Source: Candidatus Heimdallarchaeota archaeon B3_Heim
GTDB taxonomy: Archaea > Asgardarchaeota > Heimdallarchaeia > Hodarchaeales > Hodarchaeaceae
NCBI GenBank assembly: GCA_003144275.1
Contig: NJBF01000071.1
Location: forward strand, 1-12,241
DNA: 12,241 nt
Direction: 5' to 3'
Under the pieces are notes generated by a model. The model had not been told where the DNA came from, searched no databases, and saw only the letters and a list, made by a program, of their open reading frames with translations. The translations under genes and the position numbers were made by a program. This document shows positions 863 through 11,758 of the stretch, one piece after another. Positions within the stretch are counted from its first letter, which is position 1; each line of letters starts with the position of its first letter.

Positions 863-971
863 GAACACACACTATTTGACTCCTGACGGTTTTTTTTCTA
901 AAAAAAACGAGAGGACTGAAAATTTCCACATTAATCTAGGGTTAATAGCCCGTGGACGAAGAGTGGTAGCT
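863..971 (+). repeat. Modular intergenic element copy 1 (boxes B-C-D, box A absent)
   Basis: GAACACACACTATTTGACTCCTGACGG (863-889), ACGAGAGGACTGAAAATTTCCACATT (907-932), TAGCCCGTGGACGAAGAGTGGTAGCT (946-971). Confidence 0.93.
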
Positions 972-1691
972 CTACCCTATTTTCCTCAATTCTAAATAAA
1001 GAATATCACCCTTCATCCATTCATTGACTATGTTAAAGTTAGACTTCTGTGCTAAGTCTTTAAAATAGTCAATACTCTGCATCTGCCATAAAACACCATA
1101 TCCTGCTTCCACATCCTCAGTTGGTAATTCTACATTCAACTGTATCAGGAAGGCTTTATAATCTGCAAACTTCCTTGGAATATTGACGTCCCAGATTAAA
1201 AATTTCCCATTACTTTCTAAAACTCTATAAACCTCTTCAAATATTTTCAAATGGTCATGAAGTGGAATATACATTAGAGAAAAGAAAGCTGTGCATACAC
1301 TGAATGATTTTGGTAAAAAAATAAGCTTCGTTGCGTCCATGACAATTTTTAGTGCCTTATTTTCAGTCTCCAGTAATTCTTTTTCACTTTTATCAATCGC
1401 AACAACTTGATTGCCGTTTAATTTACCTATTATACCTTCTCCTCCTCCTCCGATATCGAGAATATACCCTTCTGTTTCTATTGGGATTAATTGGAGAGAT
1501 TGCTTTTTTGGACTATAACTAAACTGTTGTACAAATTCCATGATCTGGGTAAGTAAATTTTCATTTCCTTTTGCTTTAGCCAGATCTATAGCTTTTCTTA
1601 CTTTTTCAACGGCATCATCAAGCTTATCTTCCATGAGATCCAATTCTGCATCCTTAAGAAGCCTTTTAATTGTATTTTCTTCAACATTCAT
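972..1691 (-). CDS. Class I SAM-dependent methyltransferase with an N-terminal helical extension
   Basis: Motif I ILDIGGGGEG, acidic residue at the end of beta2 (VVAIDKS), VMDATKL, FSVCTAFFSLMYI, VYRVLESNGKFLIWD. Confidence 0.9.
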   Translation of the reverse strand: MNVEENTIKRLLKDAELDLMEDKLDDAVEKVRKAIDLAKAKGNENLLTQIMEFVQQFSYSPKKQSLQLIPIETEGYILDIGGGGEGIIGKLNGNQVVAIDKSEKELLETENKALKIVMDATKLIFLPKSFSVCTAFFSLMYIPLHDHLKIFEEVYRVLESNGKFLIWDVNIPRKFADYKAFLIQLNVELPTEDVEAGYGVLWQMQSIDYFKDLAQKSNFNIVNEWMKGDILYLELRKIG

Positions 1692-1852
1692 ATGAGACCC
1701 AGTAATCTTTCATTTTTTCATAAGGTTCAAAACAAATTTTTCATCAGATAAGTGGTTATTATACACGTGTAAATAGAAAAAGCTTTGCTTTGGTAAGGAT
1801 AGAATGTTTTTCTATAAAAAGACGTAATATTCGATGACTGGATAATTAGAAG

Positions 1853-1982
1853 GACCACCAGACATAAGATCAGAAGACTCACGAACACACTCTATTTGAC
1901 TCCTGAAGGCTTTTTCTGGATAAAAACGAGAGGACTGACATTTCCATATTTTACAGTACCCACGTTTCATGATTGCACCTAT
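1853..1982 (+). repeat. Modular intergenic element copy 2 (A-B-C plus degenerate D)
   Basis: GACCACCAGACATAAGATCAGAAGACTCACGAACACACTCTATTTGACTCCTGAAGGC from 1853, box C at 1926-1950, degenerate D AGTACCCACGTTTCATGATTGCACCTAT at 1955-1982. Confidence 0.93.
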
Positions 1983-2085
1983 CCTATTGAGTGAGCTTAA
2001 GTAGGGATCGACTTCACATAAACCCACGAAATAATTGACAATTTAAAAACTAAAGAATTGCTATTTCTTTACCATATGAAGGGAT

Positions 2086-3486
2086 TTAATCAGAGGATTG
2101 ACTTTGGGGCCTAAAAAACCACTCAATAATACACATTGCAATAGATGAGACTTCAAAGAAATTAAAGTAATCTTCCGTTTGAATTCTAAACTTTTTACGG
2201 ACATACCTAGAATCTTGTGAATAAATCGAAGCAACTAATGTGTTTTGCTGATCATAAACACCTATTTCTGAAAAGCTAATTTTGGAAATAAGGAAAGATT
2301 CTTGGGCTGTTTTAATAAGACCACACGCTTTTGGATATTGAAACATGTTTACGCTGAATAATTTGAATCGAACATTGGTTTCTTGAACTCCTGACGAAGA
2401 AGGGATTATTTTCCATCTAGTAAAAAAGAAATTACCTTTGATCTGACCCATATGACGTCCGTCTGAAGCTGTAATAACCATCCTACGTGGAAACCAGACA
2501 TAAGTAATTATCAATACAACCCCCAATGAAAAAATAAGAACATAAGGAGTAGTAAATATTCCAAAAGTGCCCAAGGGCACAATAAAAATCATTATGAGTA
2601 AGAGATATATCAAGAGTCGGTTCATTGCTGTTCTTGTGCCTGTTAGCTGTTCCTTCAGGGATTGGATTACATATTCGACCTTCATAGTCCCCGATTTTTG
2701 GACAAAATAAGCGTTTTGATCCCGTTCTTTCATTACCTCCTCTTCTTTGGCCAGCTCTTCTTCAAGGAATTCAATATTGATTCCTTGTTTTTCCATTTTC
2801 TGACGTACTTTTTGATTTTGGAGGCTCTCCTTCAAAAAATCCCGGCGTTCTTCAGGAAAATGTCGAAAGGCACGAAGAAAATGGTTTGTTCTATCAACAG
2901 GTGGTTTTAAAGCTTTTTTTCTTTCTTTTGAAGGTGAAGTAAACGCCCATACTAGAAAGATGAGATTTAAAAGAAAGGTTATCACGATCCCAAGAAAAAA
3001 GTAAGGTAAGATTACAAAAAATAGTGGGAGAACAACAATTCCTAGCATCATATTTGGAACTCGATAGCCTTCAGGAAACGGATCTGGAGGGTCTAAGCGA
3101 ATATTTAGCCCTCCCCGCACCAACGAAAGTATGAGTAACAGAGTAATATACACAAGTAGAATGAAATCTTCCTCAGATCGTGTAAAAGGACCCAGATTAT
3201 TAGCATTCACAACTTGTACAAATTGAATTAGTAGAAATACGGATATGAGTATGTAGGTTCCATCAACTAGCCAACTAATTAATGTTTTAGTTACTTTTGC
3301 GTCATCTGGATGCATTCCATAATCAGCTGAAGGAGTAGAAGAAGTGTGACCAGGTGAATCCAGTATTTCCGCCTTAAAATCTTGGTCAGGGAATGACTTG
3401 CCAATTTTCGACGAAAGGTAAGTACTACAGTTTTCACAGTAGGTTGGAGGCTTTTTATATTCCTTTCCACATAAGGGGCATTTCAT
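2086..3486 (-). CDS. Zinc-ribbon plus multi-pass membrane protein with a possible C-terminal LURP-one/scramblase (tubby-C-like) domain
   Basis: N-terminal CPLC-x11-CENC, several hydrophobic helices and a charged linker. The C-terminal beta-rich repeat pattern (ITASDGRHMGQIKG; VYDQQNTLVASI) ends in a hydrophobic helix. The domain call is inference. Confidence 0.8.
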   Translation of the reverse strand: MKCPLCGKEYKKPPTYCENCSTYLSSKIGKSFPDQDFKAEILDSPGHTSSTPSADYGMHPDDAKVTKTLISWLVDGTYILISVFLLIQFVQVVNANNLGPFTRSEEDFILLVYITLLLILSLVRGGLNIRLDPPDPFPEGYRVPNMMLGIVVLPLFFVILPYFFLGIVITFLLNLIFLVWAFTSPSKERKKALKPPVDRTNHFLRAFRHFPEERRDFLKESLQNQKVRQKMEKQGINIEFLEEELAKEEEVMKERDQNAYFVQKSGTMKVEYVIQSLKEQLTGTRTAMNRLLIYLLLIMIFIVPLGTFGIFTTPYVLIFSLGVVLIITYVWFPRRMVITASDGRHMGQIKGNFFFTRWKIIPSSSGVQETNVRFKLFSVNMFQYPKACGLIKTAQESFLISKISFSEIGVYDQQNTLVASIYSQDSRYVRKKFRIQTEDYFNFFEVSSIAMCIIEWFFRPQSQSSD

Positions 3487-3662
3487 TTGTGTTCCAGAAA
3501 AACAGGACTTCGAGCTTAAAATGTTTAACTATAACGATTGCGTTACTCTCAAAACAATCTTCGAAATTAAATATGTGAAATTGTTCTAAAAACCTAAGAA
3601 ATCTACTACTACAAACTAATTTCAAAAATGATAATAATGGGAGATATACATTGGGAATAAGT

Positions 3663-3811
3663 GACACCAGACAGAAGACCAGAAGTATTTCTACATTAAT
3701 CAACACACACTCATTATGACTCCTTAAGGCTATTACTTGGAAGTAAACGAGAGGACTGAACATTTCCATACTAATTCTTAAATAGTGGCCCGTGTGCGAT
3801 GAGTGGCAGCT
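3663..3811 (+). repeat. Modular intergenic element copy 3 (complete A-B-C-D)
   Basis: GACACCAGACAGAAGACCAGAA from 3663, CAACACACACTCATTATGACTCCTTAAGGC (3701-3730), box C at 3747-3772, GGCCCGTGTGCGATGAGTGGCAGCT ending 3811. Confidence 0.95.
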
Positions 3812-4003
3812 ATGAATCTATGGTTATGTTAAAGTGAAAAGTGGAGAGATTCGATCACCACTGGTATAAATATCGGAAAAAGAGAAGATATCTATTTCAG
3901 GTCAAATTTTGCCTTCTTAACATTAGATAAAAATTAAATGGTTCTCAAACTTCACAAAGAGAGTGAACAATACTTCATTAAGAAGAAATTTTGAATTCAT
4001 CAA

Positions 4004-4011
4004 TTATATAT
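4004..4011 (+). promoter_or_regulatory. Putative archaeal TATA box for 4044..4571
   Basis: TTATATAT about 33 nt upstream of the TTG start. GAGGGAA lies just before the start. Confidence 0.5.
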
Positions 4012-4043
4012 AATCTACTAATCCGCAACTTACGAGGGAACAA

Positions 4044-4571
4044 TTGACCGATATTAATCAAACGAATAAGTATATAATTAGAGTCTCTCTATTATGCCAT
4101 CCTGAGGACCTACTGTTCCCGTTAATCCGTGCATTGATTCAAAAATATAAAGGGCAAACTACAAATCAAACATTTGAAGACTTAACTCTCACTGCTTCGA
4201 CAATAAAGATCCGCATTGCTAATAGAATTGTAAAAGTGATTTTAGTCCAACCTATTGGTCGTGGATTCTTTAAAAAAAGGTTCGGTCACCACTTTCGTTC
4301 TAGTGGAGCCATTATTGCATTTTCAAAAGATAACAATGATTCGTTTGAAGCATCAAGGGCCTATTACCAGCGTTTCAAGGATATCAATACTGCTGATGTT
4401 CCAATTGCATTTGTTGGGATTCAAGAGTCACCTGATGACCTTGTTACTAATGAAGCAATCCAGCTGGAGGTGGGTACATCTGAATTCTATTATTTCATTC
4501 AGCATAATGATTTCGAAGTATTAGGGAAAATCCTCCTCTCCTTAGGAACAAAAATCTTCACACCAGCTTAG
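4044..4571 (+). CDS. Ras/Rab-fold protein with degenerate nucleotide-binding motifs (putative pseudo-GTPase)
   Basis: Rab-like spacing and segments (TIKIRIANRIVKVILV, HFRSSGAIIAFSKDNNDSFE, VPIAFVG). No GxxxxGK[ST], DxxG or NKxD motif. Confidence 0.7.
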   Translation: MTDINQTNKYIIRVSLLCHPEDLLFPLIRALIQKYKGQTTNQTFEDLTLTASTIKIRIANRIVKVILVQPIGRGFFKKRFGHHFRSSGAIIAFSKDNNDSFEASRAYYQRFKDINTADVPIAFVGIQESPDDLVTNEAIQLEVGTSEFYYFIQHNDFEVLGKILLSLGTKIFTPA

Positions 4572-4646
4572 CAGTTGTTATTCACAGCTACATATGAGTA
4601 TGGAAATAGAGAATTAGTAAGAATTGAGAAAAATAAAAGTGAGAAA

Positions 4647-4757
4647 GACCATCAGACATAAGATCAGAAAGACGCAACACACACCCTTTTAGACTCCTTA
4701 AGGCTTTTTTTCTAGAATACACGAGGGGACTGACACTTTCTACAATTCTTCCAAGAA
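4647..4757 (+). repeat. Modular intergenic element copy 4 (A-B-C, D absent)
   Basis: GACCATCAGACATAAGATCAGAA from 4647, CAACACACACCCTTTTAGACTCCTTAAGGC, ACGAGGGGACTGACACTTTCTACAAT (4721-4746), then hairpin TTCTT-CC-AAGAA (4746-4757). Confidence 0.93.
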
Positions 4758-4766
4758 ATGGAAATT

Positions 4767-5327
4767 TTATATCTGATCAAGATAGATATTTCCTAGACGA
4801 TCAAGAACTTCTGAAACATTAATTCCTGTCTTTGCTGAAACGGGGAAATACTGAACAGAAAAACCAAATTCTAAGGTTCTCTTACTTAAGGTGTCACAAA
4901 ATTCAAGAGCTTGAGAGTCACTTACGAAATTAGGGGAATCTGCAGAGCCAACTGAAACACGAAGGTCAATTTTGTTACCAACAAGAATGATCGGTATAAC
5001 ACCCTTCCCATTGTGTTTAAAAATTGCCTCAATCCAAAATTCACAAGCTGCAAAAGATTCAGGATCAGTAACATCAAACATGACTATTGCACCCAGAGCA
5101 CCATAATAAAAAACCGAACGAATAGTACCTTCTTTTGCTAAGGGAACTAAATCCCAGAGCTGAAATTTGATACTTAGATTACGGATCATCCTATATGTTA
5201 AACAAAAATCAGCACCTATAGTCGCTGCATAGTGTGGAGAAAAACTCTTAGGACAAAAATATTGTAAATAGGAAGTTTTTCCAACTCCAGGATTACCAAC
5301 TAAGACGATTTTCATGAGATAAGACAT
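4767..5327 (-). CDS. Rab-like small GTPase
   Basis: G1 GNPGVGKT, G2 ATIGADF, atypical G3 WDLVP (DxxG glycine lost), G4 NKID, G5 SAK. Confidence 0.92.
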   Translation of the reverse strand: MSYLMKIVLVGNPGVGKTSYLQYFCPKSFSPHYAATIGADFCLTYRMIRNLSIKFQLWDLVPLAKEGTIRSVFYYGALGAIVMFDVTDPESFAACEFWIEAIFKHNGKGVIPIILVGNKIDLRVSVGSADSPNFVSDSQALEFCDTLSKRTLEFGFSVQYFPVSAKTGINVSEVLDRLGNIYLDQI

Positions 5328-5356
5328 AGAAATGCCCCATGGAGGAAGATCGATGA

Positions 5357-5364
5357 ATATAAAA
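5357..5364 (-). promoter_or_regulatory. Putative archaeal TATA box for 4767..5327
   Basis: Minus strand TTTTATAT, 30 nt upstream of ATG. Confidence 0.5.
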
Positions 5365-5445
5365 CTTAAACTACTTCATATGAGTTTGGAAATGGAGAAA
5401 GTTTTGAAAAAGAAAAACAATGAAAATCTAATGAGATCCTAGAAG

Positions 5446-5594
5446 GACCACTAGACCTAAGATCAGAATTTTCTTTAAAAACAACACAGATACGCTATTA
5501 GACTCCTTAAGGCTTTTCTTTAAGAGAATACGAGAGGCCTGAGAATTTCCACACTAATTTTTACTTAGTAGCCATTGTGCGATTAGTGGCAGCT
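5446..5594 (+). repeat. Modular intergenic element copy 5 (complete A-B-C-D)
   Basis: GACCACTAGACCTAAGATCAGAA from 5446, CAACACAGATACGCTATTAGACTCCTTAAGGC, ACGAGAGGCCTGAGAATTTCCACACT (5530-5555), GTAGCCATTGTGCGATTAGTGGCAGCT ending 5594. Confidence 0.93.
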
Positions 5595-5655
5595 GGCAGA
5601 GCATGTCAGTAGGCAACAAGAAATGGAGGACTTAGTCAGTAACTAAGAAAAATCG

Positions 5656-6183
5656 TCATTCACCCTCACTTGGTGGAAAAAAAGTCCAATTCCTGGAGGT
5701 TATGACTTCTAAGAAAACAAAAAATCGGAAAATAATCGCATATTTAGACACAGATGCCAGTCTGAAAGAAAGAATAGTAGCGAGGGAAGGAGAAAAGAAA
5801 AAGGAATAGATAACAATAGCCAAAAAGGAAGCAAGAAAATTTAATAGCAACACGGAAAAAATAAAGGGAGGAATAAAATACCAGAGCAGCCCAGGAGGAA
5901 GAGACCAAGTAGAATAAGGGGTTTCAGTTATAATCGGAAAATTGAAGAAATTTAAATGAATATCAATCGTCCAGCAGAGATCAGGAATAGTGCTTGCAAA
6001 ATTTAAGGGAAAGGAAAAAGAACGGGTGAGATCAGAATTCAGAAGGGACAAGGAAGAAATCGTAAATACAACAAAAAGAATCAAAACGGGAAGACGATAA
6101 GACGGACGGGCAGGAAAAAGGGAAGCAGTATGGAGACTACCGAAATGCCAGATGAGGAGTGTAAAAAGGATGCATAGCAACAA
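5656..6183 (-). CDS. Hypothetical multi-pass membrane protein, paralog of 6433..6852
   Basis: 175 aa, TTG start, very hydrophobic. Shares IWHxG, SxLNxDLT, SFP and FFxFxIxTE in order with the neighbouring ORF. Confidence 0.65.
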   Translation of the reverse strand: MLLCILFTLLIWHFGSLHTASLFPARPSYRLPVLILFVVFTISSLSLLNSDLTRSFSFPLNFASTIPDLCWTIDIHLNFFNFPIITETPYSTWSLPPGLLWYFIPPFIFSVLLLNFLASFLAIVIYSFFFSPSLATILSFRLASVSKYAIIFRFFVFLEVITSRNWTFFPPSEGE

Positions 6184-6248
6184 GATCTAATTCTCATCCT
6201 AAAAAATGATAAACAACACTAGTCAATCCCTCATTGCGATGATCAAAA

Positions 6249-6377
6249 GACCAGCAGACATAAGACCAGAAGACTCACGAACACACACTCATTTGGACTC
6301 CTTAAGCTAACTAACGAGAGGACTGAAAATTTCCACATTGTTTAGTAAATATTAGACCGTGTGCGATGAGTGGTATT
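6249..6377 (+). repeat. Modular intergenic element copy 6 (complete A-B-C-D, B-C linker hairpin deleted)
   Basis: GACCAGCAGACATAAGACCAGAAGACTCACGAACACACACTCATTTGGACTCCTTAAGC from 6249, box C exact at 6314-6339, AGACCGTGTGCGATGAGTGGTAT ending near 6376. Confidence 0.95.
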
Positions 6378-6432
6378 GAATAGCAATTGCTAACATGTCA
6401 ACCGAAGCCTCCACGTGTACACTACTGCTCTA

Positions 6433-6852
6433 TCAACGGGAGGTTCTAAAGACAAAGGAGCAGAAACTAATGACTACAAATGTAAAAAAGAAATTAAGAA
6501 AGAGAACCAATAAAGTAATTGACGGAGAATAAAGAAGGAGAAGCTCAGGCCAACCAAGGATAGAGCGACCCAGAACCTCAGTAAAGATCGTAAAATCAAA
6601 AAACTCGAGACGGACATACCATAAAGGAAGGACGGGATCAATTTCACTAGTGATATGAAATGGAAAAGACAAAAAATGGGTGAGATCAAGGTTTAAGACA
6701 GACAACAGGGAGAGAACAAGGATTACCGAAAAAACCAGCAAGTGAAGGAGAAAACGAAAGCGAGAAAAAACTGACGCATACTTCGTCGTCCCAAGATGCC
6801 AGATAAGGACACCAAGAAGGATACTAAGAAGGAAATCGATTCCTCCAGCCAA
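6433..6852 (-). CDS. Hypothetical multi-pass membrane protein, paralog of 5656..6183
   Basis: 139 aa, ATG start, hydrophobic. Colinear similarity to 5656..6183. Confidence 0.7.
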   Translation of the reverse strand: MAGGIDFLLSILLGVLIWHLGTTKYASVFSRFRFLLHLLVFSVILVLSLLSVLNLDLTHFLSFPFHITSEIDPVLPLWYVRLEFFDFTIFTEVLGRSILGWPELLLLYSPSITLLVLFLNFFFTFVVISFCSFVFRTSR

Positions 6853-6892
6853 TCATAGTGAATGTCAACAGAATAGTTCCCTCAAGATAAAA

Positions 6893-7006
6893 GACCTTCA
6901 GACATAAGATCAGAAATATTTCTCATTAAATCAACACCCACTATAGTGACTGACTCCAGAGGGCATTTTCTTAAAAAAAAAAGATGGGATTACTAATATC
7001 CAAATT
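6893..7006 (+). repeat. Modular intergenic element copy 7 (A-B plus diverged C)
   Basis: GACCTTCAGACATAAGATCAGAA from 6893, CAACACCCACTATAGTGACTGACTCCAGAGGGC, AAGATGGGATTACTAATATCCAAATT (6981-7006) aligns without gaps to box C at 17 of 26 positions. Confidence 0.85.
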
Positions 7007-7063
7007 GCTCTGAAATATTAGTCTTTGTCGTAATCAATAATGAAAAATTGACTTCATCAATTT

Positions 7064-7468
7064 TTATGTCATATCATGAACATAGGGAATAGCTAGATTA
7101 ACAGCGAAAGCAACTAGAAGAAAAATGAATTGAATTCCCCCAACATCGGGGCCAGTCAATGCATTCGGGATCAGCATATATGCACCATAGAGAAAGGCTA
7201 GTACTGCCGCAACTAATGCTTTAAATTTTTGATCCGCATTCGTAGGCGGAGTATTGGAACCATATTTCTCAACTGCACCAACTCCCACCATTAATAAAAC
7301 TCCTATCCCTACTATGAAAAATTCAATCGTACCAGGATCTTCAGTAGACGAAGTAAGATTGAAATAAAGCTCAACAAGGGCCAGAATAGCTATAGAAGAT
7401 GCAGGAATTGCTTCTTTTATACTTCGTAAGTAATCTGTCATACTTTCAACTTTAGGCATTAAAAACAC
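7064..7468 (-). CDS. Small hypothetical membrane protein (about 4 TM helices)
   Basis: 134 aa with four hydrophobic segments. TATA-like TTTATATA at 7496-7503. The start could be GTG 7468 or a slightly downstream ATG. Confidence 0.75.
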   Translation of the reverse strand: MFLMPKVESMTDYLRSIKEAIPASSIAILALVELYFNLTSSTEDPGTIEFFIVGIGVLLMVGVGAVEKYGSNTPPTNADQKFKALVAAVLAFLYGAYMLIPNALTGPDVGGIQFIFLLVAFAVNLAIPYVHDMT

Positions 7469-7495
7469 CTCAGCCGTTAAAGTGAGTTATTATCC

Positions 7496-7503
7496 TATAT
7501 AAA
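7496..7503 (-). promoter_or_regulatory. Putative archaeal TATA box for 7064..7468
   Basis: Minus strand TTTATATA, 28 nt upstream of the start. Confidence 0.5.
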
Positions 7504-7609
7504 GTCTATCAGATAGAAAACCATTAATAGGAGGATTTCCTGCTAGTTCTAGTTGTTATTTAACGTAGCAATTAATTTTTGCCAATAACTTATCTATGAG
7601 AAGGATGGG

Positions 7610-9430
7610 ATGAAAACGGCACAAACACAAAATTCAAGTTTAAAAAATAGAAAATGGCCAACTGAACATTTGGAGGAAGTTATTTCATCACTACCACAAA
7701 CAGTTCCACAAAAGATTATGAAGAATTTGTCACCTAACTGGCAGGATATTACCCAAACAGATTCTCAAGCAGTTGAGCTAGCTAGTGACAATCTTCCAGG
7801 AATCTATGCCCTCGGACAGGATTTACGAAGGGAAAAAAGAAGTAAAGCAAAAGGTGGGTTAGTATACAGGGTATTAACAAATGATAGAACTCTTGAGAAC
7901 AGCAATAAAGCAGTTATACAATATCTCATGATCTGGAGCAGACAACGAATAGCACTAACATTCGCAAACTATTTTCTTCCAATACTGATTCTAGTAGGAT
8001 TAACATTCTATATTAATACTGATATTCTATTCTATAAGGATCCATTTAGCCTTTTAGAACCAATTGATTCCACACGAATACTAGGAATCATCTATGGTAC
8101 CTTCACAGAAATGTGGTTAATCTTCTTATCATGTCTGTGGTTCATTCTGGTTGGCGTATGGAATGTTGTTAAGTGGATTAGAAATGGAGCAGCATCAATG
8201 AGAGTCCTTTTTGGAGTTTATGGGTCTTTATACTTAATTAGTGCATTCATTGAATATCGATTGCACCTCTCTCCATTATTTTCCTTTAATTTAGGAGAAA
8301 TATTAAATAATCCCAACTATACTGTTTTAGTAATTAAGATAACTTGGACTCCGATACTCGCAATAGCATTTTCAATTGGATTTTATATGCTAGTCAGAAA
8401 GCTTCCAAGTCTGAAAAAGATAATTGGAGGCCATAAAATGGATTATGCCCCGATATTTATCTATCTGAAGAGGTCAACACCTTCTGAGAAATGGCAGAAA
8501 GAGGTCTTATTTGATAAGTTCCATTATTGCGTGAAGGAGTTAATCGTACCAGAAGACGATTATAAGTTAGTAATGGAAGGAAGATGGCATTCTTTTGAGT
8601 TATATCGGAGAAAAAAATGGATTATTAACAGAATACTTTGGCTCGGGAGTCTTTGTGGCTTCATAATCTTACTCCTCGTTTCGATATATGGTATTCTAAA
8701 TGGAATTGACATATTGGAAATCTTGGAACCACTCCAACTAACAAATCAACTTGAATTATTTATACAAAGGTTGATTTATCCGTTATTACTTATTGGAACA
8801 GGGTATTGGTCGAGTACTAGGTATTCGACGAATCTTATTGGGAAAAAAACTAGAACAAAGAAACAATTGAAGAAGGAAAAATATTATCTATCTTCTGAAA
8901 AACTAAAGCAGCTCTGGAACTTGAAATCAAAAGAAGCACACTTTACTATAAAGGATAAACTGCAATACCCAGAAACATATCGAAATGAGAAGAATGGACT
9001 GACTTGGTTATCATTCTATGATGATGAAGTAGAGAAAGAGAAGGGAGCAAATATAATCTGCGAATTAGGCTTGATAACGAAATTCAAGATGAGATTCTAC
9101 AAAAGAGGAGTAGCCAATGATTTGGTGAAGAGTGGAAAAAAAATGATTAAGCAGAATAGACCAGAGGAAGCCCTATATAGATATGAAAAAGCTATAGAAT
9201 TAAAACCTGATTTAACACAGGCATGGATAAACAAAGCAGATCTTTTCAAGGATATTGACAGAGTTGAAGAAGCACAGGAGGCAATTGACTTTGCAATTCA
9301 AACTCAACCAAGGAATGCCCAAGCAATGTTTGTTCAAGGAGCAATTTTTGAGAAGAAAGAGGAGAAAGATAAGGCAAAAGAGGCTTTTGAAAAAGCAGAA
9401 AAGCTAGGTTATAGGAGATCAGAGGATTAG
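7610..9430 (+). CDS. Multi-pass membrane protein with C-terminal tetratricopeptide repeats
   Basis: 606 aa with about 6 hydrophobic helices. C-terminal TPR pattern: EEALYRYEKAIELKPDLTQAWINKA, AIQTQPRNAQAMFVQG, AKEAFEKA. Confidence 0.88.
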   Translation: MKTAQTQNSSLKNRKWPTEHLEEVISSLPQTVPQKIMKNLSPNWQDITQTDSQAVELASDNLPGIYALGQDLRREKRSKAKGGLVYRVLTNDRTLENSNKAVIQYLMIWSRQRIALTFANYFLPILILVGLTFYINTDILFYKDPFSLLEPIDSTRILGIIYGTFTEMWLIFLSCLWFILVGVWNVVKWIRNGAASMRVLFGVYGSLYLISAFIEYRLHLSPLFSFNLGEILNNPNYTVLVIKITWTPILAIAFSIGFYMLVRKLPSLKKIIGGHKMDYAPIFIYLKRSTPSEKWQKEVLFDKFHYCVKELIVPEDDYKLVMEGRWHSFELYRRKKWIINRILWLGSLCGFIILLLVSIYGILNGIDILEILEPLQLTNQLELFIQRLIYPLLLIGTGYWSSTRYSTNLIGKKTRTKKQLKKEKYYLSSEKLKQLWNLKSKEAHFTIKDKLQYPETYRNEKNGLTWLSFYDDEVEKEKGANIICELGLITKFKMRFYKRGVANDLVKSGKKMIKQNRPEEALYRYEKAIELKPDLTQAWINKADLFKDIDRVEEAQEAIDFAIQTQPRNAQAMFVQGAIFEKKEEKDKAKEAFEKAEKLGYRRSED

Positions 9431-9511
9431 AAGAGAACACGAAAGTATGTGGTTAAAATCAAGAAAGGAAGTTTTCCTGTGAGCTTTGAAATAATGGAAC
9501 AATTTGGAAGA

Positions 9512-9602
9512 AAAACAGGAATAATTGATCAACGATTCCTTCTCGGCTCATTTTTTCCTTCCTGTTTTGGTTTCTTTTTCCTATCAATCATCCTTTTTTT
9601 TT
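9512..9602. terminator. Possible terminator region between convergent genes
   Basis: Inverted repeat AAAACAGGAA (9512-9521) / TTCCTGTTTT (9559-9568) followed by pyrimidine- and T-rich tracts ending in a T run at 9594-9602. Confidence 0.35.
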
Positions 9603-9636
9603 ATTAAAACACGAGAGGACTGAAAATTTCCACATT
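9599..9636 (+). repeat. Modular intergenic element copy 8 (box C only, with the preceding T/A hairpin)
   Basis: ACGAGAGGACTGAAAATTTCCACATT (9611-9636) is identical to copies 1 and 6. It is preceded by TTTT-ATT-AAAA (9599-9609). Confidence 0.9.
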
Positions 9637-9954
9637 CTTAGGAAATCCATGAATAAACAAAACCATAAGTCTCACAGAATGGGATTATTTTGAGCAAAAA
9701 AAGGGTAATATTATTCGAGGGAGTACTAAAAACATCTAGACGTGAAAAAAAGTATGAACATGACTCGAGATAATAGAAGAAATGACAATTATGATTACAA
9801 GGGGTTATATCTGACAGATCTGGATTATCAAACGAATTCACATATGAAAGAAGAACATCACGAAGGAAAAGGAGAATGTTAAGCTCCTCTACTGGATTAC
9901 AGATATGTAACAGGATGTAAGTAAAAATATCAACAGCATCGATATTATAGAGAT

Positions 9955-10848
9955 TTACCTTAAGGGAATCAATGCTTCTTCTAAATTTTCTAGCGCAAGC
10001 GATGGCCGACCCATTAATTTGTAGATCATTCCTTTAATCAAAAGACATCTAATAATCCCATTCTCTGCCCATAAATGATACTGAGCATCGCTGAAAATGT
10101 TCAAACTCTGATAAATATTCTCTAACGCCTGCTCAAATTCCCCTTTTAACGCATAAATATGGGAAATTAATACTAAAGAGTCTGCGAGGATACTTTTATT
10201 CTTAAGCTCCTTGATTAAATTCAAACTACTTTTAAAAAATTCGAGGGCAAGGTTTAAATCACCAGTTGAGGTGTAAATATTCCCAATAACTTGTAATTGA
10301 AGTGAACTTTCTGTAAGCAAAAGCGAATCATTTTGGAGAATTTTTAATCCCCTTTTTTGAAAGTCTAAGGCATGCTTTAATTCTCCCATTCTATAGTACA
10401 TTTCTCCCAAAACGTGAAAAACTGAAAAAAACTCAAAGTTGGGCTTTTCGTGCGCTTCTACATAATTTTCAATATAATCTAGCGCGAATGTGACTTCTTC
10501 TTCCCATTTGTGCATATTCCTTACTCTCCCTGGTCCAAAAATGCTTCGGATAAAGGAAATCAAATCAACTGCAATAGTATATGTATCAGGAGTCTCTTGA
10601 AAAAGGTCAGAATATACTTTCAAACTTAATGAGGATTGGATTTGGAGTGGGATTTCTTTTTTCTTGCTTTCCCTAAGAGCGTGTTTCTCAAAGGTTAATG
10701 CTTGTTTTACGTTTCCAGTCTGTTCAAGGATTTTACTCTCCAGAATCATACCATCGAATTTATTCTCAGGAGGTAAGTTTTCTATAGCCTGTAAAGCCTG
10801 ATCAAACATTTTGAACATTAAAAGTTCTTGAATTTCTTTTAGTTCCAT
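9955..10848 (-). CDS. Tetratricopeptide-repeat protein
   Basis: 297 aa with repeated TPR motifs: LGEMYYRMGELKHALDFQKRGL, IGNIYTSTGDLNLALEFFKSSL, ISHIYALKGEFEQALENIYQSL, KGMIYKLMGRPSLALENLEEAL. Confidence 0.9.
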   Translation of the reverse strand: MELKEIQELLMFKMFDQALQAIENLPPENKFDGMILESKILEQTGNVKQALTFEKHALRESKKKEIPLQIQSSLSLKVYSDLFQETPDTYTIAVDLISFIRSIFGPGRVRNMHKWEEEVTFALDYIENYVEAHEKPNFEFFSVFHVLGEMYYRMGELKHALDFQKRGLKILQNDSLLLTESSLQLQVIGNIYTSTGDLNLALEFFKSSLNLIKELKNKSILADSLVLISHIYALKGEFEQALENIYQSLNIFSDAQYHLWAENGIIRCLLIKGMIYKLMGRPSLALENLEEALIPLR

Positions 10849-10876
10849 CTCGGTAAATAATCAGAAACAATATCCC

Positions 10877-10884
10877 TTATAAAA
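10877..10884 (-). promoter_or_regulatory. Putative archaeal TATA box for 9955..10848
   Basis: Minus strand TTTTATAA, 29 nt upstream of ATG. Confidence 0.5.
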
Positions 10885-11096
10885 CTTTATAGTATTTCAA
10901 ACTGATATCTTAGGAGAATTTGGATTGAAAAAGAGAGGGAGAGGTGAGAACACAGCAGATAGGAGAATAAGGAAGCGCTCTACCCGAAGGATTAGCTAAT
11001 CTGTGGCCCATCGGAAATATCCGGAGAGTTTCTCTAGATAACTCTTTATGAATTCTCAACCAGTACATCTGGACATGAAAAAGGGGAGTTAATATA

Positions 11097-11609
11097 ATGA
11101 TAGAAAACGATGACAAATACTTAATGAAAATATGTTGTATTGGAAGTGTATCTGACCTTAAAACGGAATTCATTCGTCGATTTGCGATGGATAAGTATGA
11201 TGTAAATTACTTACCAACATTAGGTGTCGACGTAACGACGAAGAAAATCGACATAGATAATGAACAGGTAAAACTCATTCTCGTAGATACAGCAGGGCAT
11301 GAAGTTTTTAGCAAAAAACGCCCTTCCTATTACAGGGGAGCATCTGCATTTATAATTTTCTTTGATAAAGGAGATCAGCAGTCTTTCAAGGCAATACTAC
11401 AGTGGAAAAAGGAATTTCATGAACATGTGCTTGACCCTACACCACATGCGATTGTTGGTTTTCAAGCTGAAACTGAAGAGGTTTCTACGGAAGAAGCAAA
11501 ACGATTAGTTGAGCAATTAAAGTCTACCTACTTTGAATGCAACCCAACACACGGACAGGAATTATTAAAAATTCTTCAATTCTTAGGAAGAAAGGTAATA
11601 GCAGGATAA
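11097..11609 (+). CDS. Rab-like small GTPase with degenerate G1/G4/G5
   Basis: G2 PTLGVD and G3 DTAGHE retained, plus Rab-like segments (KKIDIDNEQVKLILVD, YYRGASAFII). G1 reads GSVSDLKT and G4 reads VGFQ. Confidence 0.88.
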   Translation: MIENDDKYLMKICCIGSVSDLKTEFIRRFAMDKYDVNYLPTLGVDVTTKKIDIDNEQVKLILVDTAGHEVFSKKRPSYYRGASAFIIFFDKGDQQSFKAILQWKKEFHEHVLDPTPHAIVGFQAETEEVSTEEAKRLVEQLKSTYFECNPTHGQELLKILQFLGRKVIAG

Positions 11610-11631
11610 GGAAGCAATCACAAAGAAAAAA

Positions 11632-11697
11632 GACCACCAGACAGAAGACCAGAAGACAAACAACACACACTCATTTGGACTCCTGAAGGCTTTTTCC
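11632..11697 (+). repeat. Modular intergenic element copy 9 (A-B, possible box C remnant AGAGGA at 11718-11723)
   Basis: GACCACCAGACAGAAGACCAGAAGACAAACAACACACACTCATTTGGACTCCTGAAGGCTTTTTCC. Confidence 0.92.
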
Positions 11698-11758
11698 TAA
11701 CAAAATCAAGAAAACCTAGAGGAAAATATATTAGGAAGAAGGATCTTTCTAGGAAGCT

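Follow-up and report, generated by a model that had tools for sequence, protein, structure and literature searches.

Copies of a 23S rRNA gene tail delimit a cassette-array-like region in a Hodarchaeales archaeon

Why does one intergenic element recur in gap after gap of an archaeal contig, always in the same orientation and between unrelated accessory genes? The question arises from a stretch of 12,241 nt in the genome of Candidatus Heimdallarchaeota archaeon B3_Heim (contig NJBF01000071.1), referred to here as the window. The original prediction described nine co-oriented copies of a four-box element, one per gap. This was confirmed using nhmmer with a profile derived from the window's own copies, which located nine plus-strand copies, one in each intergenic gap, starting within about 20 nt of the predicted positions; a maximally sensitive scan of both strands found no tenth copy in the window. 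Motif matches reproduced the identity of box C over 26 nt in copies 1, 6 and 8 (at 907, 6314 and 9611), and the intervals hold what had been described, namely a single ORF in six cases and a divergent pair in two. The four boxes are present, but the element extends further than they do and several copies lack some of them. Beyond box D there is a variable hairpin, followed by a conserved ACATGTCG...CCTCCAC stretch. The copies, as found by nhmmer, are given below. All match the profile on the plus strand, and "minus" indicates the sense in which the 23S tail described below reads.

811/860-972, minus: copy 1, profile 13-168, E 2.5e-35; by motif matches, box D (23S 3' end) at 950-970, C at 907-932 and B at 878-895; box A degenerate
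1842-1981, minus: copy 2, boxes A, B and C kept; 23S-derived box D degenerate
3647-3831, minus: copy 3, full length, boxes A-D and hairpins, profile 6-190, E 2e-44; box D an exact motif match at 3790-3810
4634-4761, minus: copy 4, boxes A, B and C only, without the 23S-derived part, profile 8-144
5434-5608, minus: copy 5, full length, profile 9-190
6237-6403, minus: copy 6, full length, profile 9-193; box C the same as in copies 1 and 8
6879-7071, minus: copy 7, full length, decayed, profile 7-190, E 3e-24
9595-9642, minus: copy 8, T-run and box C only, profile 88-134
11618-11705, minus: copy 9, boxes A and B only, profile 7-102

Read on the minus strand, a copy begins with ~20-75 nt from the 23S rRNA 3' end and continues into a 3' trailer of ~130 nt, in the order 23S end, short hairpin, box C, a putative T-run hairpin terminator, and boxes B and A. 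A few copies on other contigs keep a longer 23S part, of ~265-330 nt. Infernal aligned RF02540 (LSU rRNA) to C9:1-342 at model positions 2708-2987 of 2987 (165 bits), and to C65:12431-12734 and 3498-3825 at model positions 2721-2973 (169 and 139 bits), so that these copies score 139-169 bits against a gathering cut-off of 50. The window alone gave no Rfam match at E <= 1, because the 23S-derived part of its copies is too short; its copies were tied to 23S via alignment with those on C9 and C65. Box D coincides with the 23S 3' end, and the 23S stretches of C9 and C65 continue directly into element copies. By its sequence, the delimiter is a 23S rRNA gene's 3' end and 3' trailer in reverse complement. 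Neither of the earlier suggestions, that the four-box element is undescribed or that it is a domesticated MITE, is supported. A match to a known IS end, MITE or Rfam family had been named as evidence against a new system, and such a match exists in part: the adjoining copies match RF02540, because the delimiter is the 23S 3' end plus trailer.

In archaea, the leader and trailer of pre-rRNA pair into a helix, the processing stem, which contains a bulge-helix-bulge site. Boxes C, B and A represent the 3' strand of this stem: the native trailer of a relative, G007, has the same boxes, which are complementary to the 16S-23S spacer/leader. Unlike a normal processing stem, the 3' strand is present here in 20-40 extra copies without a matching leader. 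Two other interpretations were considered and rejected. The resemblance of box C (ACGAGAGGAC) to the sarcin-ricin loop is a coincidence; box C belongs to the trailer, and to the other strand, and it is the long 23S fragments that hold the real loop. A minus-strand GGAGG-N9-ATG, which could suggest a small ORF at the 23S end, belongs to the 23S 3' terminal helix region.

RNAalifold found no consensus structure for 61 full copies, because the variable hairpins are out of register. Folded individually, the copies have three short local hairpins and no single long one. Hairpins H1 and H2 occur as several alleles, with changes matched on both arms, and the T-run hairpin, found in many copies, reads as a putative terminator on either strand. 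The copies have diverged from each other, to 65-90% identity; boxes B and C are >90% conserved over the 61 copies while the spacers vary. Since pure relic decay would not conserve boxes B and C, the pattern suggests that each copy may be under selection, for instance as a candidate protein-binding site.

The genes between the copies are listed here, with predicted functions.

972-1691, minus: SAM-dependent methyltransferase (Pfam Methyltransf_11, E 1.6e-11)
2086-3486, minus: 466-aa protein without a Pfam match; its C-terminal half may be LOR/scramblase/Tubby-like, a weak lead from Atlas structure matches (TM 0.6-0.77, by target)
4044-4571, plus: divergent Ras-like protein (Pfam Ras, E 0.003, below the cut-off)
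4767-5327, minus: Ras/Roc-type small GTPase (Pfam Ras, E 4e-30)
5656-6183, minus: hydrophobic ORF of unknown function, paralogue of the 6433-6852 cassette (repeat families D8 and D11, translation)
6433-6852, minus: hydrophobic ORF, 77% identical as protein to a cassette on G020:C5
7064-9430, divergent pair: small membrane protein at 7064-7468, minus; 606-aa protein with C-terminal TPR repeats at 7610-9430, plus
9955-11609, divergent pair: TPR protein at 9955-10848, minus (Pfam TPR_12, E 2e-18); small GTPase-like protein at 11097-11609, plus, 39-60% identical to cassette proteins of G003, G018, G020 and G000:C9

We then consider how the copies are distributed. In this genome nhmmer found 23 copies, confined to four short contigs totalling ~37 kb of 3.95 Mb. 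Clustering and co-orientation had been proposed as a check, and both were found: all 23 copies are clustered, and strands are never mixed within a contig. The window is best read as one piece of a long array, of at least 37 kb in this assembly. Across five congeneric genomes we mapped 124 copies at 31 loci (stretches of 27 contigs), and orientation is uniform within each contig for 124/124 copies, for which the chance under random orientation is ~2^-93. Units have a median spacing of 1.8 kb, and 57 of the 93 intervals in the five genomes hold a single gene. Cargo orientation is unbiased (81 ORFs with the 23S direction vs 61 against, p = 0.11). Many copies are halves, of which ~20 begin at box C and ~19 stop just past it. 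Two closed Hodarchaeales genomes of another family contain no arrays.

The native context is visible in G007, where contig C8 ends within a true 23S gene (RF02540 model 2545-2987) and at least 20 co-oriented tail copies follow that gene over 47 kb. Adjacency to 23S is shown in G007 only, and the assembly of the present genome contains no 23S gene; for G003 and G013 a conserved distal flank implies that the array is next to 23S as well. The majority of bins have no rRNA genes. Along the G007 array, the copies show no gradient of identity to the native tail with distance from 23S, and hence no age gradient, which does not fit simple stepwise accretion at the gene. The full 23S gene on G001:C57, 74% identical to the fragments and with an unrelated trailer, was left out as a native reference because its binning is uncertain.

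Between genomes there are 50 orthologous cargo pairs, whose neighbours are mostly not shared. The order of cassettes differs even between G000 and G013, whose cargo is ~95% identical, and the 4044-4571 cassette of the window also occurs in G020 (95% amino acid identity) and G003 (91%) beside different neighbours. All of the genomes are metagenome bins, in which repeats and strain mixtures could inflate both these differences in cassette order and the mosaicism of the tails. The expectation that gene order between elements differs among relatives is upheld, as is the description of the layout as cassette-array-like: co-oriented, clustered copies delimit mostly single-gene units whose neighbours differ in relatives. 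Tails between orthologous cargo are 73.5% identical vs 94.8% for the cargo itself, and in a segment-wise comparison, which replaced strict megablast block ends that broke inside cargo, tails beside orthologous cargo barely exceed background. Synteny breaks at box C, the A/B spacer, the element edge and box D. In the cassette common to the window and G020, the first base of box C marks a sharp onset of homology; from box C onward, copy 3 is orthologous to G020:C33 from 6852, with 91% identity.

Whether a recombinase, HUH or RT gene lies at a cluster end had been a further proposed check, and none was present at those array ends that could be seen. There is no tyrosine (PF00589) or serine (PF00239) recombinase in the array contigs of the five genomes, no IntI-type tyrosine recombinase in the arrays, and no integrase among the 20 ORFs of the 47-kb G007 array, gene-proximal units included. 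The whole G003 bin has one tyrosine recombinase and no serine recombinase. Xer-like and other PF00589 genes do occur in the present genome, outside the array contigs. A single TnpB was found, as an ordinary insertion inside one cassette. Pairs of the attC-like type RYYYAAC...GTTRRRY number 0 in the window vs 2.9 expected in shuffles; this count and the folding agree with the earlier statement that the delimiter has neither attC R''/R' boxes nor a single long hairpin.

We propose that the region is a cassette array anchored on an rRNA tail, which was built and reshuffled through recombination between tail copies, and we put the probability of this reading at roughly 0.55. A DNA molecule that bears a tail and one or two accessory genes would undergo Campbell-type recombination with a tail already in place; the unit would thereby enter the array, and the tail would be duplicated with its polarity kept. 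Later recombination between tails would delete, move and swap cassettes and scramble the tails, with exchange points in the conserved boxes, most often near box C. We infer, and favour, homology-guided exchange by host recombination rather than a dedicated site-specific enzyme. Against the reading as a whole, no intermediate of insertion or excision was seen, the G007 array has no age gradient, and boxes B and C are better conserved than decaying relics would be.

The alternative of strict integron-like capture, in which the rRNA tail, its core being box C, would serve a putative trans-encoded site-specific recombinase as attI and attC alike, and cassettes would leave and re-enter as circles, is possible but in our view unlikely. 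It is consistent with units of single-gene size, with the sharp start of the window/G020 homology, with boxes that stay conserved while spacers drift freely (suggesting a candidate binding site), and with box C being the most conserved box and the one common to both classes of half copy (A-B-C only and C-D only). However, breakpoints between close relatives are not at a single position, cargo orientation is unbiased, and the tails beside orthologous cargo are not conserved with it as attC sites would be; the recombinase survey of the array contigs and the G003 bin also argues against it. A related and somewhat more doubtful suggestion is that Hodarchaeales have a dedicated gene-capture system new to science, in which the 23S tail with its processing-stem trailer is the recombination site and a candidate trans enzyme, or rRNA-processing/repair machinery, moves single-gene cassettes.

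The remaining explanations are less probable again. Copies might be kept as putative terminator or RNA-processing modules from the rRNA operon, insulating accessory genes from rRNA-promoter read-through or defining 3' ends, in an array grown by duplication. The T-run hairpin, terminator-like on both strands, the matched changes in H1 and H2, and the conserved boxes would suit such a role, but strict clustering at a single locus, turnover of cassettes between close relatives and the half copies are left unexplained, and the copies have no leader partner with which to form a processing stem; we regard this as improbable. It is very improbable that the copies are a new non-autonomous MITE-like element or a family of ncRNA genes unrelated to known sequences, as the window taken alone, which gives no Rfam match, might suggest: copies run on into 23S domain VI on other contigs and match the native trailer in G007, the rest of the genome has zero copies and hence no genome-wide dispersal, and neither a repeat scan nor the aligned copies reveal terminal inverted repeats. 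We give equally little credence to an assembly or binning artefact joining rRNA reads to unrelated contigs. The array contigs are indeed short and numerous, and most bins lack rRNA genes, but the same layout occurs in assemblies that are independent and differ in record prefix and k-mer label, and in contigs of 54, 113, 147 and 525 kb, and the divergence of the copies is not that of collapsed repeats.

The rRNA-tail array that we favour resembles two known systems. tRNA and tmRNA genes collect integrative elements in tandem at their 3' ends, along with derivatives that lack the integrase (CIMEs, satellites); a related case is found in the tycheposon islands of Prochlorococcus. As there, direct, co-oriented copies of a stable-RNA 3' end part blocks of accessory genes, the repeats being 3'-end copies of 23S that share its orientation; the array begins at an intact gene (here in G007), and content varies between close relatives. 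Unlike tRNA accretion, the target is the 23S tail plus processing-stem trailer, and a unit is usually one gene of 0.7-3 kb; no unit carries an integrase, even beside the gene in the 47 kb of G007, and in place of clean attL/attR pairs there are mosaic tails.

The second comparison is with integrons and CALINs, which have been described in archaea, most of the archaeal examples having no integrase on the contig (Ghaly et al. 2022, PMC9668308). The arrays share with them long runs of short cassettes with one polarised site, the occurrence of the same cassette in different contexts, and accessory cargo (TA pairs, methyltransferases, unknowns). They differ in having no attC R''/R' boxes, no single long hairpin and no IntI, and in their unbiased cargo orientation; their site is copied from the end of a host rRNA gene and does not evolve together with the cassette. 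A literature search for archaeal arrays of rRNA tails, or for integration targeted at 23S in archaea, turned up no relevant work.

For annotation, the proposed reading carries a warning: in such genomes, what is labelled as "23S fragments" or as conserved intergenic "elements" would mark the boundaries of cassettes and would not be new RNAs. If this reading is true, the end of the rRNA operon is a major polarised hotspot for gene insertion in Hodarchaeales, carrying tens of kb of strain-variable genes such as small GTPases, TPR proteins, methyltransferases and toxin-antitoxin pairs. This would explain the failed assembly of array regions and rRNA genes in metagenome bins, and would pose a mechanistic question, namely which activity recombines rRNA tails. 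If a dedicated capture system were instead to exist, it would be an analogue of the integron with a separate evolutionary origin, in the archaea most closely related to eukaryotes. The proposed array would provide a concrete locus at which gene flow could be studied in this lineage, the nearest to eukaryotes among the archaea.

Copies of the intergenic delimiter were located by repeat finding and by nhmmer, using a profile made from the window's own copies. The two methods agreed on nine copies on the + strand, one per intergenic gap, with starts within about 20 nt of those in the original prediction, and a maximally sensitive profile scan found no further copies in the window on either strand. 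The layout of the genes was also as described earlier, with one ORF in six intervals and a divergent pair in two, and a motif search recovered the same 26-nt box C at 907, 6314 and 9611. The element extends past box D, through a variable hairpin and then a conserved ACATGTCG...CCTCCAC stretch. Some copies are incomplete:

Window copies lacking parts of the element
Copies 2 and 4, + strand: box D missing
Copy 8, + strand: incomplete, T-run and box C only
Copy 9, + strand: incomplete, boxes A and B only

The copies are clustered and co-oriented: the whole genome (a bin of 3.95 Mb in 103 contigs, 36% G+C) has just 23, confined to four contigs and in a single orientation within each.

Copies per contig in the source genome
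C79 (the window, a complete contig of 12,241 nt): 9 copies
C65: 7 copies
C9: 4 copies
C50: 3 copies, all in the first 2.7 kb

The genome contains the universal sarcin-ricin sequence of 23S rRNA, GTACGAGAGGA, at four places, in every case on the opposite strand to an element copy and immediately beside it. Infernal searches with RF02540, the Rfam model of archaeal LSU rRNA, gave the following matches:

Matches to RF02540 in the source genome
C9:1-342: model positions 2708-2987 of 2987, 165 bits
C65:12431-12734: model positions 2721-2973, 169 bits
C65:3498-3825: model positions 2721-2973, 139 bits

The delimiter is thus not the undescribed element that it had been suggested to be, but the tail of a 23S gene plus its trailer. 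The outer edge of box D is the mature 23S 3' end (C9:342), and the element therefore reads, on the minus strand of the window, as the last 20-75 nt or so of 23S, H2 (a short hairpin between boxes D and C), box C, H1 (a T-run/A-run hairpin between boxes C and B), box B and box A. The 23S-derived part consists of the ACATGTCG stretch, the variable hairpin and box D, and all element sequence after box D is 3' trailer, approximately 130 nt long. Box C was also considered as a sarcin-ricin loop, a resemblance that we judge to be coincidental.

A few copies on other contigs retain a long 23S portion of about 265-330 nt, including the sarcin-ricin loop. In the source genome (G000) and the related genomes G013, G007 and G010, these long fragments begin within about 10 nt of one position, near model position 2721, which may reflect either one ancient event or a preferred end; we favour neither. 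Among the long fragments (in the source genome, locus L002, C65 3498-3825 and 12431-12734, and locus L003, C9 1-342), the helix around GCTGAATGC...GCACGAAAC varies. Over domain VI, the sole complete 23S gene found in the genus sample (locus L042, G001:C57 307-3242) shares 74% identity with the fragments, and its trailer is unrelated; either its binning is wrong or the fragments derive from another 23S lineage.

The RF02540 search found no assembled 23S gene in the source bin. A true 23S gene is present in the congeneric G007 (contig C8, model positions 2545-2987, truncated by the contig end); boxes C, B and A are recognisable in its native trailer, and at least 20 more co-oriented tail copies follow across the next 47 kb, at spacings of 0.6-9 kb. 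In G007 the array begins at the 23S gene, and the arrays retain the polarity of that gene. A processing stem formed by leader and trailer is a classical feature of archaeal rRNA, and the 23S-proximal part of the 16S-23S spacer (G007:C9) is complementary to the trailer over boxes C, B and A (duplex energy -78 kcal/mol). This complementarity identifies the three boxes as the 3' strand of the processing stem, which also explains why the reverse complement resembles a structured 'element'. In the G007 gene, 820 nt (locus L055, C8 13937-14756) cover the 3' 443 model positions, implying a putative insertion of about 370 nt (intron or expansion) in domain V/VI.

Profile mapping covered five genomes of the genus, all of them metagenome bins in which the array is fragmented, and placed 124 copies in 31 loci, each a stretch of one of 27 contigs; strands are never mixed within a contig. 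G010 has 12 copies within 30 kb on a 525-kb contig. In a set of 185,579 species representatives, an exact box C pattern is confined to these bins. Of 21 genomes in the genus, 13 carry the longer 23S fragment, frequently in several copies; in other genera of the class it is found once, matching expectation for the gene itself. In two closed genomes from another family, the 20 kb downstream of the 23S gene contain no tail repeat. The distal end of the array borders an ordinary chromosomal neighbourhood, part-syntenic between G000:C50 and G003:C196. Beyond the last scored copy in G000, past an FAD-linked oxidase gene, lies at least one further decayed relic (locus L001, C50 approximately 4670-4760), whose counterpart in G013 is well kept; the relic indicates that this apparent flank is itself old cassette territory.

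Copies are spaced at a median of 1.8 kb (range 0.18-7.3 kb), and of the 93 intervals, 57 contain a single ORF (counting those of at least 100 aa) and 22 contain two. The cargo is accessory (Ras/Roc GTPases, TPR and Kelch proteins, methyltransferases, an AbiE toxin-antitoxin pair, beta-helix surface proteins and many unknowns) and unbiased in orientation, with 81 ORFs along the 23S direction versus 61 opposite (p = 0.11). At a threshold of at least 70% amino acid identity, 50 ORF pairs are orthologous between genomes, most with unshared neighbours. The window cassette at 3746-4754 recurs in G020:C33 at 91% DNA identity, flanked by different cassettes, and the homology begins exactly at box C; in G003 its gene lies just outside the last tail copy. 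Shared cassettes are ordered differently in G000 and G013, whose cargo is about 95% identical. Cassette content and order turn over between close relatives.

In two adjacent window cassettes (5656-6183 and 6433-6852, minus strand) the ORFs are paralogous and very hydrophobic, start with TTG and belong to no Pfam family; the two cassettes resemble a single one that was tandemly duplicated along with its tail. A counterpart of one of them in G020:C5 is 77% identical. The 466-aa protein at 2086-3486 (minus strand) has no Pfam match, and an Atlas model of its C-terminal half gives a weak lead to a LOR/scramblase/Tubby-like fold.

New units would be taken up through Campbell-type recombination at a resident tail, duplicating the tail and keeping its direction, and later recombination between tails would shuffle and delete them. 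We favour homology-guided exchange of this kind (probability roughly 0.55) because breakpoints are spread over the conserved boxes and the searches revealed no recombinase. Two classes of half copies, about 20 whose start lies at H1 or box C and some 19 that stop just past box C, have box C in common; the ends of G000/G013 synteny blocks fall at box C (two or three cases), the A/B spacer, the element edge and box D. Between the same orthologous cargo, tails are 73.5% identical versus 94.8% for the cargo, and at one site the G013 copy is pristine and the G000 copy decayed, though the flanks are 96-98% identical. In a segment-wise comparison, tails beside orthologous cargo are only a little more similar than random pairs, with a modest cargo-proximal excess that lies in boxes C and D on one side and in box A plus the spacer on the opposite side. 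The tails are mosaic, with no single fixed crossover point.

The alternative, a dedicated site-specific enzyme with box C as its target, would account for why the boxes are so strongly conserved (over 90% for B and C in 61 copies) and for the one case in which homology begins sharply at box C, but the scatter of breakpoints makes it less likely, as does the recombinase search. Across the five genomes, no array contig carries a tyrosine (PF00589) or serine (PF00239) recombinase, nor is there any recombinase among 20 ORFs scanned in the G007 array or in the distal-end flanks in G000 and G003. The whole G003 bin has no serine recombinase and one tyrosine recombinase, which looks like a shared housekeeping (Xer-type) gene since it is among near-identical top-scoring matches found in all five bins. 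TnpB genes are frequent genome-wide, and a full-length one (426 aa, Cas12f1-like_TNB match) within a cassette (locus L040, G018:C121 915-2168) looks like an ordinary insertion. If the copies were purely terminator and processing modules, the hairpins and T-run would be accounted for (H1 and H2 are weak, but they recur in several alleles with matched changes in both arms), but the turnover would be left unexplained, and we consider this unlikely.

The arrays share their layout with integrons and CALINs; the window has no attC-like R''/R' pairs, in line with the original prediction, and published archaeal integrons have canonical attC sites and IntI, with rRNA unmentioned in that paper (PMC9668308). 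Full-text literature searches gave no account of rRNA tails as the basis of cassette arrays. The 23S-tail cassette array is real and unusual, and it follows the logic known from tandem accretion at tRNA/tmRNA genes and from arrays that lack an integrase.
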